Source: Buchnera aphidicola (Neophyllaphis podocarpi) (GTDB taxonomy: Bacteria; Pseudomonadota; Gammaproteobacteria; Enterobacterales; Enterobacteriaceae). From it: DNA of 32,000 nt. The stretch's first letter is position 1. Every line of letters begins with the position of its first letter. The notes under the pieces were generated by a model. The model searched no databases, was not told the DNA's origin, and saw only the letters and a program-made list of their open reading frames with translations. The stretch lies in the NCBI RefSeq assembly GCF_964059055.1, contig NZ_OZ060386.1, forward strand, positions 527,063 to 559,062, read 5' to 3'. The translations under genes were made by a program, and so were the position numbers. Positions 6,066 to 26,855 of this stretch are shown here, piece by piece.

Positions 6066-6278
6066 CAATTAAATAAATTAATTTAAACTTTTTACAAAAT
6101 TGAATTCTTAAACTAAAAAAATTAATTTTAAAAATTTTAGAAAATATCATATTAAAAATAAAGAATTAAAAACATATCGAAAAAAACTTAAAAATTAATA
6201 TTTTAAATTAAAATGTTATTCAAAAAATAATAAATCATTCACATAAAAAATAATAAATTTTATGCTCAGTATTTAAAA

Positions 6279-6369
6279 ATATAATTAATATTAAGATCGA
6301 GTATTTATCTTTTATTTGAATTTTCTATTCAAATAAAAGATAAATACTCGATCTTAATATTAATTATAT
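6279..6369 (-). terminator. Perfect 43-bp-stem / 5-nt-loop hairpin, probable intrinsic terminator of rpmE (possibly bidirectional)
   Basis: I checked every base pair. Positions 6279..6321 are the exact reverse complement of 6327..6369, and the loop is tttct (6322..6326). On the minus strand the hairpin starts 74 nt after the rpmE stop codon and is followed by TTTT. It lies between the convergent tRNA-Gly and rpmE genes. Confidence 0.6.
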
Positions 6370-6442
6370 AATTATTTACTATTATATATTAATTTTTATA
6401 TAATAAATAAAATAATAATTTAGAATTTGATAAATTTAAATT

Positions 6443-6878: not shown

Positions 6879-7094
6879 ATGAATATTTGCATTATAGCAA
6901 TTGTTATTATAATTCTAATAAGTATAATGTATTATTCTTCATATAATAAAAAAATAAAGAAAAATAAAGAAAAAATACAAAATAAATTAAATAATACTAT
7001 ACCACCAAAACCAATAAACAAATGGAAATATATTGAAGAACTAAACAAAATAGATGTCTATTATAAAAATATAGATAAAATTAATAAAAAATGA
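6879..7094 (+). CDS. ftsN: Minimal FtsN-like protein: one N-terminal transmembrane helix plus the essential FtsN activation peptide, with no SPOR domain
   Basis: In the 71-aa ORF, residues 2-19 are hydrophobic (NICIIAIVIIILISIMYY). Residues 41-59, IPPKPINKWKYIEELNKID, align with E. coli FtsN 75-93, LPPKPEERWRYIKELESRQ, including W83, Y85 and L89. Its position immediately upstream of hslVU matches the E. coli ftsN-hslV-hslU order. No obvious Shine-Dalgarno sequence is present. Confidence 0.6.
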   Translation: MNICIIAIVIIILISIMYYSSYNKKIKKNKEKIQNKLNNTIPPKPINKWKYIEELNKIDVYYKNIDKINKK

Positions 7095-16842: not shown

Positions 16843-17160
16843 ATGAACGATTTAGAATTTTATAATATTACTAATAGTTTAATGCTTTCTATAGAAAATA
16901 AAATAGATGAGTATAATAATAAAATAGATATTGAATGTGAAATTAACAATGATGTGATGTATATAAGTTTTAAAAATAACAGTAAAATTATTATTAATAG
17001 ACAAAAATTTTTAAAACAAATCTGGTTAGCTACTCAGATTAATGGCTATCATTTCAATTATTTAAATAAATGTTGGATATGTAATCGTACGGGATTAAAT
17101 TTTTGGAAGATATTAGAAATTTCTTGTTCTAGTCAATCAGGTTATAAAATAATATTTTAA
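16843..17160 (+). CDS. cyaY: Frataxin homologue CyaY (iron-sulfur cluster assembly)
   Basis: The 105-aa ORF is collinear with E. coli CyaY (MNDxEF, DIECEIN, SKIIINRQ, QIWLAT, GYHF). It is divergent from dapF, as in E. coli. Confidence 0.92.
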   Translation: MNDLEFYNITNSLMLSIENKIDEYNNKIDIECEINNDVMYISFKNNSKIIINRQKFLKQIWLATQINGYHFNYLNKCWICNRTGLNFWKILEISCSSQSGYKIIF

Positions 17161-17263
17161 TTCTTTAATTTAATCATTATAATTTTATATAAGCATAATT
17201 TAATATTTTTTAAATAATATTTTTATTTTATTATTTTAAATAATTTAAACATTTTAAATTTTT

Positions 17264-17337
17264 TCGGCGAAAGAGGATTTGAACCTCTGACCTACTGGTC
17301 CCAAACCAGTTGCGCTACCAAGCTGCGCTATTCGCCG
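17264..17337 (-). tRNA. tRNA-Pro (anticodon UGG)
   Basis: I folded the reverse complement by hand as cggcgaa-ta-gcgc-agcttggta-gcgc-a-actgg-ttTGGga-ccagt-aggtc-agagg-ttcaaat-cctct-ttcgccg-a. It is collinear with E. coli proM. CCA is not encoded. Confidence 0.93.
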
Positions 17338-17405
17338 ATGTATAAATATAAACTATTTGTTAATTTTTACAAATTAATACATTTTTTAAAGAATATAAAA
17401 ATTTG

Positions 17406-17479
17406 GGTGGTTAATGGGATTTGAACCCATGACCACTGGAACCACAATCCAGAGCTCTACCTACTGAGCTATAACCACC
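17406..17479 (-). tRNA. tRNA-His (anticodon GUG, with the extra G at position -1)
   Basis: The reverse complement folds as g-gtggtta-ta-gctc-agtaggta-gagc-t-ctgga-ttGTGgt-tccag-tggtc-atggg-ttcaaat-cccat-taaccac-c. G-1 pairs with C73, which is characteristic of tRNA-His. CCA is not encoded (caa follows). Confidence 0.93.
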
Positions 17480-17547
17480 GTTATTTTATAAGATATATTA
17501 TCTGATGTAATTTTTATGAATAAAATATGATATTTTTATTTTATTTA

Positions 17548-17622
17548 TGCGTCTGACAGGATTTGAACCTGTTACCTTTGCCTTCGGAAGACAATGCTCT
17601 ATCCCTTTTAAGCTACAGACGC
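17548..17622 (-). tRNA. tRNA-Arg (anticodon CCG)
   Basis: The reverse complement folds as gcgtctg-ta-gctt-aaaagggata-gagc-a-ttgtc-ttCCGaa-ggcaa-aggta-acagg-ttcaaat-cctgt-cagacgc-a. It is collinear with E. coli argX. CCA is not encoded. Confidence 0.9.
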
Positions 17623-17714
17623 TTATATCAAAAATTAATCTTATTTTTAAGTATAAGAATTATTAATTCTACTCTATTTTTATTTAAAAGTATATATTTT
17701 ATATTAAAAATTTA

Positions 17715-17966
17715 ATGGAATTTCTCATTAATAAATTAGCCATGACAAAAACTAATAATGAATTTTTTGATATGATGAAAAGATCGTAAAATATATTTAC
17801 TAATTATTAGCTAAGTTTATAAATAATAAAATCACCTGAATTCAGGTGATTTTATTATTTATAAACTTAGCTAATAATTAGTAAATATATTTTACGATCT
17901 TTTCATCATATCAAAAAATTCATTATTAGTTTTTGTCATGGCTAATTTATTAATGAGAAATTCCAT
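17715..17966. repeat. Perfect 252-bp palindrome (two 126-bp arms, no spacer) spanning the rho 3' end and its downstream flank
   Basis: I verified the arms block by block. Positions 17715..17840 are the exact reverse complement of 17841..17966, and the centre is cacctgaa|ttcaggtg. The right arm consists of the 51-nt rho 3' flank plus the last 24 codons and stop of rho (17892..17966). The left arm is an inverted copy. The symmetry breaks on both sides at 17714/17967. Confidence 0.97.
17828..17853 (-). terminator. Core intrinsic-terminator-like hairpin at the palindrome centre (candidate rho terminator, symmetric and so bidirectional)
   Basis: The sequence aaaatcacctgaa|ttcaggtgatttt holds the only G/C-containing pairs of the palindrome (cacctg/caggtg). 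It is flanked by a T-rich run (ttttattattt) on either strand and lies 39 nt downstream of the rho stop codon. Confidence 0.6.
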
Positions 17967-19151
17967 AGCATCTATTTCAGTCATGGGATGAATAATTTTC
18001 CTTAAAATCCACATTTTTTGTAATTCTTCATGAGAAGTTAGTAATTCCTCTTTACGGGTACCAGATCTATTATAATCAATAGCAGGAAAAACTCTCTTTT
18101 CAGCTATTTTCCTAGATAAAGGTAATTCCATATTACCTGTACCTTTAAACTCCTCATAAATCACCTCATCCATCTTAGAACCAGTATCAATTAAAGCAGT
18201 AGCTATTATAGTTAAACTACCTCCTTCTTCAACATTACGAGCAGCACCAAAAAAACGTTTAGGTCTGTGTAAAGCATTGGCATCTACTCCTCCTGTCAAA
18301 ACTTTACCAGAAGCAGGTACAACAGTATTATAAGCTCTAGCAAGTCTAGTAATAGAATCAAGCAAAATAATTACATCTTTCTTATGTTCAACTAATCTCT
18401 TAGCTTTTTCGATAACCATTTCAGCTACCTGAACATGTCTAGAAGCAGGTTCATCAAAAGTAGAAGCAACAACTTCTCCTTTTACTAACCTTTGCATTTC
18501 AGTAACTTCTTCAGGTCTTTCATCTATTAAGAGAACCATAAGAACACAATCAGAATGATTATAAGCTATGCTTTGAGCAATATTTTGTAATAAAATCGTT
18601 TTACCAGCTTTGGGAGGAGCAACTATTAATCCTCTTTGACCTCTACCTATGGGAGAAGCTAAATCTAAAACTCTTGCAGTTAAATCTTCAGTAGAACCAT
18701 TACCTCTTTCCATTCTTAATCTACAATTTGCATGCAAAGGTGTTAAATTCTCAAATAAAATTTTACTGCGTGCATTTTCAGGTTTATCATAATTAACTTT
18801 ATTTACTTTAAGTAAGGCAAAATATCTTTCTCCTTCTTTTGGAGGACGTATTTTACCAGCTATTGTATCACCTGTCCTTAAATTAAATCTTCTTATTTGA
18901 CTAGGTGAAACGTATATATCATCTGGACCAGCAAGATAAGAACTATCTGAAGAACGAAGAAAACCAAATCCATCTTGTAAAATTTCTAATACACCGTCTC
19001 CAAATATATCTTCACCGCTTTTTGAATGTTGTTTTAAAATAGAAAAAATAATATCTTGTTTACGCATACGTGCTAAATTTTCTAGACCCATTTTATTGCC
19101 AAGTATAATTAATTCAGAAACAGGAGTATTTTTAAGTTCGGTAAGATTCAT
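17892..19151 (-). CDS. rho: Transcription termination factor Rho
   Basis: The 419-aa ORF is very highly conserved against E. coli Rho. It starts [15 protein letters not shown] and contains GFGFLRS, Walker A (APPKAGKT), [12 protein letters not shown] and RKEELL. Its last 25 codons form part of the 252-bp palindrome. Confidence 0.98.
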
Positions 19152-19367: not shown

Positions 19368-19700
19368 CTAACTTAAATTAGAATCTAAAAATTCTTTTAA
19401 TTGAATTTTGGATACAGCTCCAACTTTAGTTGCTTTAACTAAACCATCGCTAAATAATAATAAAGTAGGTATACCTTTAATTGAATATTTAGCAGGAATT
19501 TTTGTATTATGTTCAACATTTAATTTTGCTACAATTATTTTATTTTTGTATTCTAAAGATATATCTTCTAAAATAGGAGATAAAATCTTGCAAGGATTAC
19601 ACCAACTAGCCCAAAAATCTACAAGAAAATATCCTTTATTTTTAATAATTTTAGATTCAAAATTACTGTCTGTTAATTCTATTATTTCATAATTATACAT
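19368..19700 (-). CDS. trxA: Thioredoxin 1 (active site WCNPC)
   Basis: The track ORF extends to 19742. The ATG at 19700 is preceded by GGAGA with 5-nt spacing and gives a 110-aa protein collinear with E. coli TrxA (109 aa). Shared blocks include VDFWASWCNPCK, IPTLLLF and ATKVGA. Confidence 0.93.
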   Translation of the reverse strand: MYNYEIIELTDSNFESKIIKNKGYFLVDFWASWCNPCKILSPILEDISLEYKNKIIVAKLNVEHNTKIPAKYSIKGIPTLLLFSDGLVKATKVGAVSKIQLKEFLDSNLS

Positions 19701-23413: not shown

Positions 23414-25282
23414 TTAATCAATATTATAATTATAGTTAATTTTTTTTATATCTCTTACAGCTCCTTCACTAGCACTAGTAGCAAATATAGCATAATTTTT
23501 AAGCGCTAAAGAAATTTTTCTATTTCTATTTTTCATTGGAGTATATGCAAATATACCTCTAGACTCTTCTATTTGCTTTCTAGCATTTAATTCAATATCA
23601 CTAATATTTAAATTAATTTTTTTACTTTTAATATCTATTTCGATAATATCTCCATTTTTTACTAAAGATATTAAACCTTTATTTGCTGCTTCTGGAGAGA
23701 TATGACCTATAGATAATCCAGATGTTCCTCCTGAAAATCTACCATCTGTTATAAGAGCGCAATGTTTATCTATTCCCATAGATTTTAGATATGTTGTAGG
23801 ATAAAGCATTTCCTGCATTCCAGGACCTCCTTTAGGTCCTTCATATCTTATTACTACAACATCACCTTTATTAATAAGACCATTTAAAATTGCATCAACT
23901 GCATCTTCTTGGCTTTCATAAACTTTGGCTTTTCCTTTGAATAAAAAATTTTTTTTGTCTACACCAGCTGTTTTTAATATACATCCATCCTTAGCTATAT
24001 TGCCATATAAAACTGATATTCCCCCTTCTCTACTATATGCATATTCTACCGAACGTATGCATCCATTAATTCTATCTTCATCTAAATTTTTCCATCTATA
24101 ACTTTGAGAAAAAGGTTTTATAGTTTTAATTCCGCCAGGACCAGATCTAAACATTTTTTTAATTTTTTCATTATCTGTAATCTTTATATCATATTTATTA
24201 ATTAAAATTTTTAAGGTTGATCCCATTATGTTTTTGACTTTACTATTTATTAAATTTCCTCTATCTAATTCACCTAATATAGAAATTATACCACCAGCAC
24301 GATGCAAGTCCTCTATATGATATTTTTTTGTATTAGGAGATAATCTACAAATATTAGGAATTTTTTTTGATATTTCATTGATATCTTTCATAGAAAAATT
24401 GACTTTAGCTTCATTAGCTGCAGCTAATAAATGAAGTACTGTATTTGTAGATCCTCCCATAGCTATATCTACTATCATAGCATTTCTAAAAGCAGAATTA
24501 GTAGCAATACTAAGAGGCAACAATTCTTTATTGTTTTTAAGATAGTAATTTTTTGTTATTTCTACTATTAAAGAAGCAGAATCTAAAAATAGTTTTTTTC
24601 TGTCTGTATGAGTTGCTAATATTGTTCCATTGCCAGGTAAAGCTAAACCTAAAACTTCAATTAAGCAGTTCATAGAATTTGCTGTAAACATTCCTGAACA
24701 AGAACCGCAGGTAGGACATGCAGAATCTTCTATTGTTTTAGCTAAATTGTTATTAATTTTTGCATTTACTCCCTGAGCTATTGAATCTACTAAATCAATT
24801 TTTATATCTTTGTTTTTTAATGATATTTTTCCAGCTTCCATAGGACCTCCAGAAACAAAAACTGTAGGAATATTTAATCTTAAAGAAGCCATTAACATAC
24901 CAGGAGTAATTTTGTCACAGTTTGATATGCAAATCATTGCATCAACACAGTGTGCATTGATCATATATTCTACAGAATCTGCTATCAATTCACGAGAAGG
25001 AAGAGAGTACAACATACCACTATGACCCATTGCTATTCCATCATCAATTGCTATTGTATTAAATTCCTTTGCTACTCCTCCTTTTGAATTAATCTGATCT
25101 GATATAATTTTAGAGACTTTCCTTAAATGTATATGACCAGGTACGAATTCAGAAAATGAATTAACTACTGCAATAATAGGTTTATCAAAATCTGATTCAA
25201 TCATTCCAGTAGCTTTCCATAAAGATCTAGCACCAGACATTTTCATTCCATGGGTTGTAGTTTTAGACCTGTAAGTAGTCAT
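23414..25282 (-). CDS. ilvD: Dihydroxy-acid dehydratase
   Basis: The 622-aa ORF has the N-terminus [17 protein letters not shown]. Also present are [14 protein letters not shown], the cluster ligand region [18 protein letters not shown], and [19 protein letters not shown]. Confidence 0.97.
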
Positions 25283-25392
25283 AATAAAAATCCTTAAACA
25301 TATTAATTTTACTCATTGTAAAATTAAAAATACTTAGTTATTATAAAATTGAAAAATGTTTTGAAATGTTTTTGATATTTTTGGTTTTTTTA

Positions 25393-25465
25393 TCAGGGGT
25401 GGAGGGATTTGAACCCCCAACAATCGGTTTTGGAGACCGATGCTCTACCATTTGAACTACACCCC
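25393..25465 (-). tRNA. tRNA-Trp (anticodon CCA)
   Basis: The reverse complement folds as aggggtg-ta-gttc-aaatggta-gagc-a-tcggt-ctCCAaa-accga-ttgtt-ggggg-ttcaaat-ccctc-cacccct-g. It is collinear with E. coli trpT. The 3' CCA is not encoded. Confidence 0.93.
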
Positions 25466-25640
25466 TATTAAAATTTTAAAAAAAGGAATGGTAAATTTTA
25501 AATTTAATAATAATATGAATTCATAATTATTTCAAGATTTTTATTTATATCAAAATATAATTTTTATACAAAAAATAAGCTTTAATAGATTCATAGAGTT
25601 AAACTTAATTAAATTTACTTATATAAAAGCGAAATAAAAT

Positions 25641-26855
25641 ATGAAATTTCCAATTTATTTAGACAACGCTTCAACAACACCTCTAGACAAAAAAGTTTTA
25701 AATAAAATGTTAAAATATCTAACTTCAGACGGAGAATTTGGTAATGCAGCTTCGAGATCTCATATATTTGGATGGAAAGCAGAAGAAGCAGTAGATAAAG
25801 CAAGGAATCAAATATCTAAGTTAATATCAGCTGATTCAAGAGAAATTATATTCACTTCAGGTGCAACAGAATCTAATAACCTAGCTATAAAAGGTTGCGC
25901 CTATTTTTACAAAAACAAAGGAAATCATATAATTACAAGTCAAACTGAACATAAATCAGTTTTAGATAGTTGTAGATATCTTGAAACACAAGGATTTGAT
26001 ATTACATATATAAAACCTGAATCTAATGGAATTATTGATTTAATAAAAATTGAAGAAGCAATCAAAAAAAATACAATACTAGTGTCTATAATGCATATTA
26101 ATAATGAAACAGGAATTATGCAAAATATAAAAAAAATAGGCTCTATTTGTAAATCAAGAAATATATTTTTTCATGTAGATGCTACTCAAAGCATAGGTAA
26201 GATAAAAATAAATATCAATAATATAAATGTAAATCTAATGTCTTTTTCTTCTCATAAAATACATGGACCAAAAGGTATAGGAGGTTTATATATAAGACGT
26301 AGACCAAGAATTCGTCTTGTAAGTCAAATTCATGGAGGAGGACATGAAAAAGGAATGAGATCTGGTACATTACCAGTACATCAAATTGTAGGAATGGGAT
26401 ATGCTTTTAGTATCGCAAATAAAAATATGATATCTTCCCAAAGAAAAATTAAAAAATTAAGAGATTTTTTATGGGAAGGAATAAAAGATATAGAAGAAAT
26501 TTATTTAAATAGTGATTTATTAAATGGTTCACCTAATATTTTAAATGTTAGTTTTAATTATGTAGAAGGTGAATCTTTAATAATGGCATTAAAAGATATA
26601 GCTATTTCTTCTGGATCTGCATGTACTTCAGCTAGTTTAGAACCTTCTTATGTTCTTAGTGCAGTTGGAGTTAAAGATGAATTAGCTCATAGTTCTATAC
26701 GCTTTTCTCTTAGTAAATTTAATACTTTAGAAGAAATAAAATATACAATAAATATAATACATAAATCAATTAACAAATTAAGAGAAATTTCTCCTTTATG
26801 GGAAATGTTTAAATCAGGAGTTGATTTAGATAACATAAAGTGGGATCATAAATAA
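25641..26855 (+). CDS. iscS: Cysteine desulfurase IscS
   Basis: The 404-aa ORF starts [14 protein letters not shown]. It has the PLP-lysine region [17 protein letters not shown], the catalytic loop [17 protein letters not shown], and the C-terminal [13 protein letters not shown]. Confidence 0.97.

Follow-up and report, generated by a model that had tools for sequence, protein, structure and literature searches.

A quarter-kilobase palindrome made from the 3′ end of rho is shared by Buchnera genomes of Neophyllaphis aphids, and its arms appear to evolve in concert

Introduction

Long DNA palindromes are unstable in Escherichia coli, where the SbcCD nuclease cleaves the hairpins that they form (a 246-bp interrupted palindrome in lacZ serving as the model) and where palindromes of ~250 bp are attacked by SbcCD and require repair by RecA and RecBCD. 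Arm-to-arm gene conversion is known from the palindromes of the human Y chromosome and from the inverted repeats of plastids. Buchnera is a textbook case of genome stasis: it lacks RecA, and its genome has hardly any repeats, duplications or rearrangements. Here we describe a perfect palindrome in a 32,000-nt window of the Buchnera aphidicola (Neophyllaphis podocarpi) genome (NZ_OZ060386.1, 527,063 to 559,062, forward strand); it lies between rho, the gene of transcription termination factor Rho, and a tRNA cluster, and it is built from the 3′ end of rho. Coordinates are given as positions within this window. A closely related system is template-switch mutation or quasipalindrome correction (Ripley model; four-point template-switch mutation, Löytynoja & Goldman, PMC5453318; Mönttinen & Löytynoja, PMC8794818), in which template switching makes perfect stems, restores pairing and inverts loops (PMC8794818; PMC5453318).

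The repair genes of Buchnera form the background to this locus. RecA is absent from Buchnera and recombination proteins are few (PMC1193525). The available entries of a list of DNA-repair genes in 90 Buchnera strains, two of them from Neophyllaphis, name recB, recC, recD, sbcB and mutH/L/S/T/Y, and these entries hold no recA, sbcC or sbcD; according to the same entries, mutS and mutL are missing from most Buchnera among the strains listed (PMC11193766). This gene list suggests that SbcCD is absent from the host of the palindrome.

Results

An inverted copy of the rho 3′ end forms a perfect palindrome. The segment from 17841 to 17966 was found to be the exact reverse complement of 17715 to 17840, giving two 126-nt arms that are 100% complementary with a spacer of 0 nt, and this complementarity breaks off sharply at the outer ends of both arms. 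When the window was shuffled (n = 20), the longest perfect hairpin-type arm was 13 nt (mean 11), which excludes chance as the source of an arm of 126 nt. The G+C content of the arms is 19.8%, along the whole arm. The RNA of the palindrome alone is predicted to form one unbroken duplex of -179.7 kcal/mol, and a 401-nt context around it folds with z = -28 compared with shuffles. The right arm holds the native C-terminus of a full-length Rho open reading frame (ORF); thus, the right arm is genuine rho and the left arm is its inverted copy. Further copies of the arm were not detected in the 32-kb window, where its 20-mers match the palindrome alone. A perfect palindrome with 126-nt arms, zero mismatches and no spacer had been described in an earlier reading of this DNA from its letters (the sequence-only reading), and the present analysis agrees with it. 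The ORF at 17892..19151 confirms its further statement that the right arm consists of 24 terminal rho codons with their stop codon, plus 51 nt of flank; its view of the left arm as an inverted duplication of the rho 3′ end is supported, and outgroup Buchnera carry no such copy; and the 126-bp duplex that it expected in the transcript corresponds to the uninterrupted predicted fold. It was wrong in placing the only G/C pairs at the center, as these occur throughout the arms.

The palindrome is shared by three genomes. The Rho and CyaY proteins encoded in the window were identical, residue for residue, to CAL4325833.1 and CAL4325827.1 of the ENA-submitted 559,180-bp genome of Buchnera aphidicola (Neophyllaphis podocarpi). 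For TrxA, DapF and RpmE of the window, exact look-ups found no protein on record. A CyaY homologue search matched only the protein's own 90% cluster, and this cluster revealed that three genomes could be compared. The two others, both from Lu et al. 2024 (PMC11193766), were (i) CP135042 (N. varicolor 26), which matches the window at 99.35% identity across 7.26 kb (0.65% divergence); and (ii) CP135039 (N. podocarpi 25), which is 96.1% identical over 8.3 kb (3.9% divergence), with a pooled intergenic divergence of about 6.5%. The inverted repeat was found at the same place and with the same outer boundaries in all three genomes, with a total length of 252-259 bp and a spacer of 0-5 nt (Table 1). 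The host labels of these genomes clash, in that the window, labeled N. podocarpi, is 99.35% identical to the symbiont of N. varicolor 26 and 96.1% identical to that of N. podocarpi 25, suggesting that an aphid sample was misidentified or that there are cryptic host species.

As outgroups we used Mindarus Buchnera CP135024 and OZ060398, which are the nearest available and have DapF proteins about 60% identical. In both, rho is still followed by tRNA-Arg, tRNA-His and tRNA-Pro, the spacers measuring 182 nt and 201 nt, and neither an inverted rho copy nor a long hairpin was found at the rho-tRNA junction of CP135024 or OZ060398. The comparison of the rho-tRNA-Arg spacer among sister strains that the sequence-only reading had proposed thus places the palindrome in the three Neophyllaphis Buchnera genomes and outside the outgroups, and this distribution indicates that it was derived within the Neophyllaphis lineage and is older than the 3.9% split. 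With boundaries and an insertion point that are identical in all three genomes, the palindrome predates the divergence of the compared lineages. Buchnera sequences change at about 1e-8 to 1e-7 substitutions per site per year; these general rates suggest an age of roughly 1e5 to a few 1e6 years, as an order of magnitude. The CP135024 record has several ambiguous bases (Ns) between tRNA-Arg and tRNA-His.

Substitutions in one arm are mirrored in the other. The arms of the three genomes were tabulated position by position. Between the window and CP135039, four substitutions were found in the right arm, and four of four were mirrored in the left arm (Table 1), with no unmirrored change in the inner 122 bp of the arms. 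The sole unmirrored difference lies in the outermost left arm and marks erosion at the arm edge. Mismatches between the arms of one genome numbered 0, 0 and 2 in the three genomes, compared with 4 paired differences between the lineages. If the arms were independent and changed at local neutral rates, ~7 mismatches would be expected per lineage since the split, with P(0) of ~1e-3 per lineage, and the probability of four exact mirrors by chance would be ~1e-9. Set against this expectation, the mirrored substitutions indicate that information passes between the arms, which appear to evolve in concert. One mismatch in a stem of ~-180 kcal/mol costs almost nothing, so selection for pairing is an unlikely cause; the arms are probably kept identical by RecA-independent hairpin-templated copying, most likely template switching.

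A second hairpin shows the same behavior. Another long hairpin, with shorter and less perfect arms (Table 1), sits between tRNA-Gly (+) and rpmE (-). When it was compared with its counterpart in CP135042, the inner stem was found to carry one mirrored change from A:T to G:C, the loop was found to be the exact reverse complement (TTTCT to AGAAA), and two changes in the outer, imperfect part were unmirrored. Its arms, of only 54 nt, are too short for assembly errors to account for it. The combination of loop inversion and restored pairing is a specific template-switch footprint, and the homogenizing process appears to be general, not confined to the rho palindrome. The presence of this hairpin in the same window also weakens the premise of the sequence-only reading that repeats are scarce in the genome.

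The center resembles an intrinsic terminator. At the center of the palindrome, 51 nt past the rho stop codon, the core AAAAUCACCUG-AAUU-CAGGUGAUUUUAUUAUUU provides a GC-containing stem-loop followed by a U-tract; either strand reads AAAATCACCTG-loop-CAGGTGATTTT, then TTATTATTT. Its predicted fold energy is -36 to -41 kcal/mol in all three genomes, among which it is the sole part of the palindrome to vary in length: the center is GAATTC in the window, GAAT-AAAA-ATTC in CP135042 and GAAT-AAAAA-ATTC in CP135039, such that the zero spacer is found in the window's genome only and the other loops are 4 nt and 5 nt, respectively. By parsimony over the three genomes, the ancestral center would have had the GAAT-A4/5-ATTC loop, and the zero-spacer GAATTC of the window would be a recent 6-nt slippage deletion between AAT repeats, which makes the missing spacer the youngest part of an older structure. 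The core was not called by a generic terminator scan, because the scan stretches the stem to 20 pairs and then meets no T-run. The anatomy is that of a small bidirectional intrinsic terminator, in agreement with the terminator-like center described by the sequence-only reading, and with the palindrome centered on it the core is its presumed seed. In RNA, the inner hairpin with its U-tract probably works as an ordinary bidirectional terminator and would stop most rho transcripts short of the outer left arm; the outer stem would probably be a passenger. No support was found for the earlier suggestions of an oversized terminator, an RNase substrate or an mRNA fate coupled to translation.

Assemblies and contigs agree on the junction. 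The genomes of Lu et al. were assembled from 2x150 Illumina reads with MEGAHIT, NOVOPlasty, Geneious and Pilon (PMC11193766), and the genome of the window probably belongs to the INRAE-CBGP set (bioRxiv 10.1101/2024.04.12.589189), which followed a protocol of 251-nt reads and SPAdes with k up to 127. The palindrome arms (126 nt) are below the read lengths and the largest k used, and the outer junction and rho have no k-mer in common that might lead an assembler astray. The Logan contig SRR29340287_43286, which another assembler produced from raw reads at k=31, also crosses from the flank into the left arm. This contig runs from pitA through dapF, cyaY and the tRNAs, continues about 30 nt into the left arm, a distance that a left-arm-specific CT allowed it to reach, and stops at the final base of the last unique 31-mer, precisely where a de Bruijn graph is bound to break when it meets a genuine inverted repeat. 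Logan contigs retrieved with N. varicolor CyaY and with CP135039 TrxA end inside tRNA-Pro and just past trxA, respectively, and are uninformative on the palindrome. In CP135039 the left arm begins ATCT where rho reads ATGG, so it does not consist merely of re-used rho reads. The palindrome is genuine and not an assembly artifact. A single arm joined to unrelated sequence, which would have spoken for a chimera in the sequence-only reading, is not what the assemblies show; the junction is present in the three genomes and in the Logan contig. That reading had left three options, of which artifact is disfavored by these same data, very recent formation is disfavored by the 3.9% split, and maintenance is favored by the four of four mirrored substitutions. 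One ambiguous N was noted in CP135042, 14 nt beyond the left boundary and beside a difference in T-run length. It was considered as a sign of mis-joining and was downgraded, since Ns occur elsewhere in the assembly batch of Lu et al.

Features of the locus and its neighborhood. The features of the palindrome and its surroundings are collected in Table 1. The Rho protein is 96% identical to Rho of free-living Enterobacterales (Buttiauxella), and a query of genome contigs with Rho returned, among the matches listed, free-living Gammaproteobacteria and no Buchnera. In the unique spacer between palindrome and tRNA-Arg, 8 of 92 positions differ from CP135039, with 2 gaps, and the weak candidate promoter of the tRNA operon is TTTAAA-18-AATAAT at 17688..17659. 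The gene cyaY is convergent and lies next to the tRNA cluster. Rfam at a permissive threshold recovered three tRNAs only, with no family match for the palindrome. Two candidate explanations of the left arm and of the repeat were rejected: (i) a small peptide, the 24-codon copy of the Rho C-terminus that starts with ATG, as CP135039 reads ATC TAA; and (ii) a mobile or dispersed palindromic element, as the palindrome is single copy in the window and made of rho sequence. In the non-coding stem, 1 of 51 sites changed compared with about 3.3 expected, a rate that is indistinguishable from that of other spacers. There is no evidence for a special RNA or peptide function of the palindrome.

Table 1. 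Features of the rho palindrome and its surroundings, with arm differences between the genomes compared
Feature	Position	Strand	Description
Left arm	17715..17840		Inverted non-functional copy of the last 24 rho codons, stop and 3′ flank
Left-arm subparts	17715-17789; 17790-17840		rho codons and stop (read on + strand); 51-nt 3′ flank
Right arm, source copy	17841..17966	-	rho 3′ flank (17841-17891); stop and last 24 codons (17892-17966)
Central core	17828..17853		AAAATCACCTGAATTCAGGTGATTTT; intrinsic-terminator-like hairpin with A-tract and U-tract, same on both strands
rho, transcription termination factor Rho (419 aa)	17892..19151	-	Full-length ORF, native C-terminus
tRNA-Arg(CCG), tRNA-His(GTG), tRNA-Pro(TGG) cluster	17263..17622	-	Downstream of rho, same strand
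Unique spacer between palindrome and tRNA-Arg	17623..17714	-	Holds weak candidate tRNA-operon promoter
Second long hairpin	6268..6380		54-nt arms, 93% complementary, 5-nt loop (6322-6326)
Substitution, rho Leu codon	17726 / 17955		Synonymous, mirrored vs CP135039
Substitution, rho Ile codon	17729 / 17952		Synonymous, mirrored vs CP135039
Substitution, rho Ala codon	17741 / 17940		Synonymous, mirrored vs CP135039
Substitution, GC stem of core	17835 / 17846		Window C / G, CP135039 T / A; mirrored
Sole unmirrored difference	17717..17718		Left-arm outermost GG is CT in CP135039; rho keeps Met-Glu codons
Arms and spacer, window			126 + 0 + 126
Arms and spacer, CP135042			127 + 4 + 127
Arms and spacer, CP135039			123 + 5 + 123 perfect, or 127-nt arms with one outer dinucleotide mismatch

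Several observations were made elsewhere in the window. Next to the tRNA cluster (16843-17160), the Neophyllaphis Buchnera have cyaY and are without hemC/hemD, and at that place Mindarus Buchnera and OZ060398 carry hemD-hemC, with cyaY not called. TrxA (19368-19700, -) has the active site WCNPC where WCGPC is canonical, and WCNPC is kept in all three Neophyllaphis Buchnera genomes. Between rpmE and hslV there is an ORF of 71 aa (6879-7094, +) whose N-terminus is hydrophobic; a gene is called for it in CP135042 too, with no Pfam match on record, and it may be the remnant of a larger gene. The cumulative GC skew has its minimum near 25-26 kb of the window (about 25000-26000) and rises thereafter, which could reflect gene-strand composition or nearness to a replication landmark. 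The circular record ends no more than about 30 kb from the window.

Discussion

We regard it as probable that the palindrome is a template-switch inverted duplication that was seeded at the rho terminator and whose arms are kept uniform by hairpin-templated copying. In an ancestor of the Neophyllaphis Buchnera, a template switch during replication would have taken place at the small terminator hairpin that follows rho; some 113 nt or more, comprising the rho 3′ flank and the last 24 codons, would have been copied backwards before the original template was resumed, and a ~26-bp hairpin would thereby have become a palindrome of ~250 bp. The product would survive since Buchnera appears to be without the SbcCD nuclease. 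Hairpin-templated copying, either by intramolecular template switching or by repair on the folded strand, would pass a new substitution to the other arm or erase it with no need for RecA. Selection on Rho would filter the fixations in the right arm such that only synonymous changes remain, and the loop would be beyond the reach of correction, drifting by slippage (0, 4 or 5 nt). An outgrowth from the terminator by fold-back or template switch had been put forward by the sequence-only reading, and it is the best model of the origin, with outgroups that keep the synteny and are without the copy.

Several points weigh against this reading or narrow what it can claim. Selection on a functional stem would also give mirrored changes, and is countered on energetic grounds only. 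The outer junction shows microhomology of no more than 2 nt (AT), such that the return switch is a presumption of the model, and the ancestral spacer cannot be aligned, because the nearest outgroups are too distant (DapF identity as given above), such that an origin in a single event is presumed as well. What is said here of recA, sbcCD and mutS/mutL is drawn from Buchnera in general and not from the three genomes themselves. The evidence for the repeat consists of assemblies and contigs; every assembly is short-read, two of them share one pipeline, and the separate-laboratory origin of the window's genome is deduced from accession style and preprint.

Among the alternatives, selection of the palindrome for a function, with pairing kept by compensatory evolution, is in our judgment improbable. 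The candidate functions are a reinforced terminator or insulator that would act in both directions between rho and the tRNA operon, an entry site for RNase III at which rho mRNA would be split from the tRNA precursor, and a protein-bound DNA cruciform. Each would suit a palindrome that lies exactly between rho and a co-oriented tRNA operon, opposite convergent cyaY, that has core terminator anatomy on both strands, that has been kept across 3.9% divergence in a deletion-prone genome, and in which every stem change keeps pairing. However, a single mismatch in a 126-bp stem (about -180 kcal/mol) is energetically negligible, so selection for compensation would be extremely weak, especially in a bottlenecked symbiont; the outgroup Buchnera handle the same junction without a palindrome; the loop or spacer is unconstrained (0, 4 or 5 nt); the non-coding stem has no significant slowdown (1/51 vs about 3.3); Rfam has no matching family; and an unrelated hairpin (6268-6380) also mirrors its changes, which points to a mutational process. 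We assign the same low likelihood to a combined version, in which the full duplex is maintained as a cruciform or double-stranded RNA insulator and the non-coding arm serves as a conversion partner that repairs the last 24 rho codons. If true, the insulator would set the fate of the rho mRNA 3′ end and block read-through into the tRNA operon and from convergent cyaY, while the non-coding arm would feed or repair the end of an essential gene in a RecA-less genome.

The palindrome could also be real and its arms homogenized by a route other than template switching, namely mismatch repair on a cruciform or hairpin, or break repair linked to RecBCD, which we rate slightly lower still. Mirrored substitutions show arm-to-arm transfer and not its mechanism, and recB, recC, recD and, in some strains, mutS and mutL are present in the Buchnera gene pool according to the available entries of the strain list. 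Yet with RecA absent from Buchnera (PMC1193525), canonical strand-exchange conversion is unlikely, the same entries have mutS/mutL missing from most Buchnera listed, and the loop inversion at the second hairpin, a specific template-switch footprint, would not be expected from mismatch repair. An assembly or library artifact, in which a fold-back chimera at the terminator hairpin yields perfect arms and mirrored differences, has very little probability in our view. It would draw on the facts that all data are short-read assemblies, that CP135042 has its N close to the left boundary and that an artifactual copy of rho reads would mimic concerted evolution. These are outweighed by an identical junction in three samples and genomes, by a CP135039 left arm that is two bases off rho (ATCT vs ATGG), by a Logan k=31 assembly that reproduces the join of flank and arm and breaks where a true repeat requires, by the lack of any junction k-mer able to mislead the graph, by Ns elsewhere in the assembly batch of CP135042, and by arms shorter than the reads and the largest k. 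Equally remote is the idea that the palindrome formed independently and recently in each lineage from its own rho, with arms that are perfect because they are young. It would explain the perfect arms and seemingly mirrored differences without ongoing conversion, but it needs two or three events with a nucleotide-identical boundary and insertion point, and the ATCT/ATGG edge difference of CP135039 indicates divergence after formation of a shared structure.

The template-switch origin with hairpin-templated copying, which we prefer, has consequences beyond this locus, within a base of three short-read genomes, one locus and one companion hairpin. A type of palindrome that E. coli is unable to retain has persisted in Buchnera through divergence at the level of speciation, with arms that appear to co-evolve base for base, and it would offer a natural and datable case of concerted evolution that proceeds at a hairpin without RecA. 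It supports the proposal that template switching during replication makes long stems and 'compensatory' double substitutions without selection. A warning follows for the use of covariation: perfect covariation in a stem, the usual proof of a functional RNA, can be purely a mutational by-product. Moreover, a non-coding pseudo-copy can become linked to a stretch of an essential gene.

Comparison with known systems

When compared with bidirectional intrinsic terminators, the center of the palindrome has the short GC-containing stem and the A-tract and U-tract, lies between transcription units and is the same on both strands; unlike typical terminators, with stems of 5-15 bp, the perfect stem runs 126 bp into coding sequence, and the core is a putative terminator. 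Like REP/BIME, ERIC, MITEs and the Rickettsia palindromic elements, the palindrome is intergenic and hairpin-forming, whereas it differs from all of these in being single copy in the window, made of the 3′ end of a neighbor gene and without an Rfam match. With the human Y-chromosome and plastid inverted repeats it shares arms that are near-identical while the flanks diverge, changes that occur in both arms and decay at the outer boundary; those repeats measure kilobases to megabases, however, compared with 126 bp here, and the present arms are presumably independent of RecA/Rad51 recombination. Like the substrates of E. coli SbcCD, it belongs to the ~250 bp size class with a near-zero spacer, such that the threshold of about 150-200 bp is exceeded; unlike the long palindromes of E. 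coli, it is natural, chromosomal and stable over ~4% divergence, in a host gene pool without sbcC, sbcD and recA. Of template-switch mutations, the three signatures, an adjacent reverse-complement copy, compensatory double changes and loop inversion, were all seen here. The differences are of scale and persistence, as template-switch mutations mostly span a few to a few tens of nt and at least 113 nt were copied here, including the coding end of an essential gene, and as the rho palindrome, unlike the described events, is a quarter-kilobase structure maintained across species. Overall, we see in the palindrome not a novel class of element but a striking case, unusual in its length, of a mutational process that is already known.

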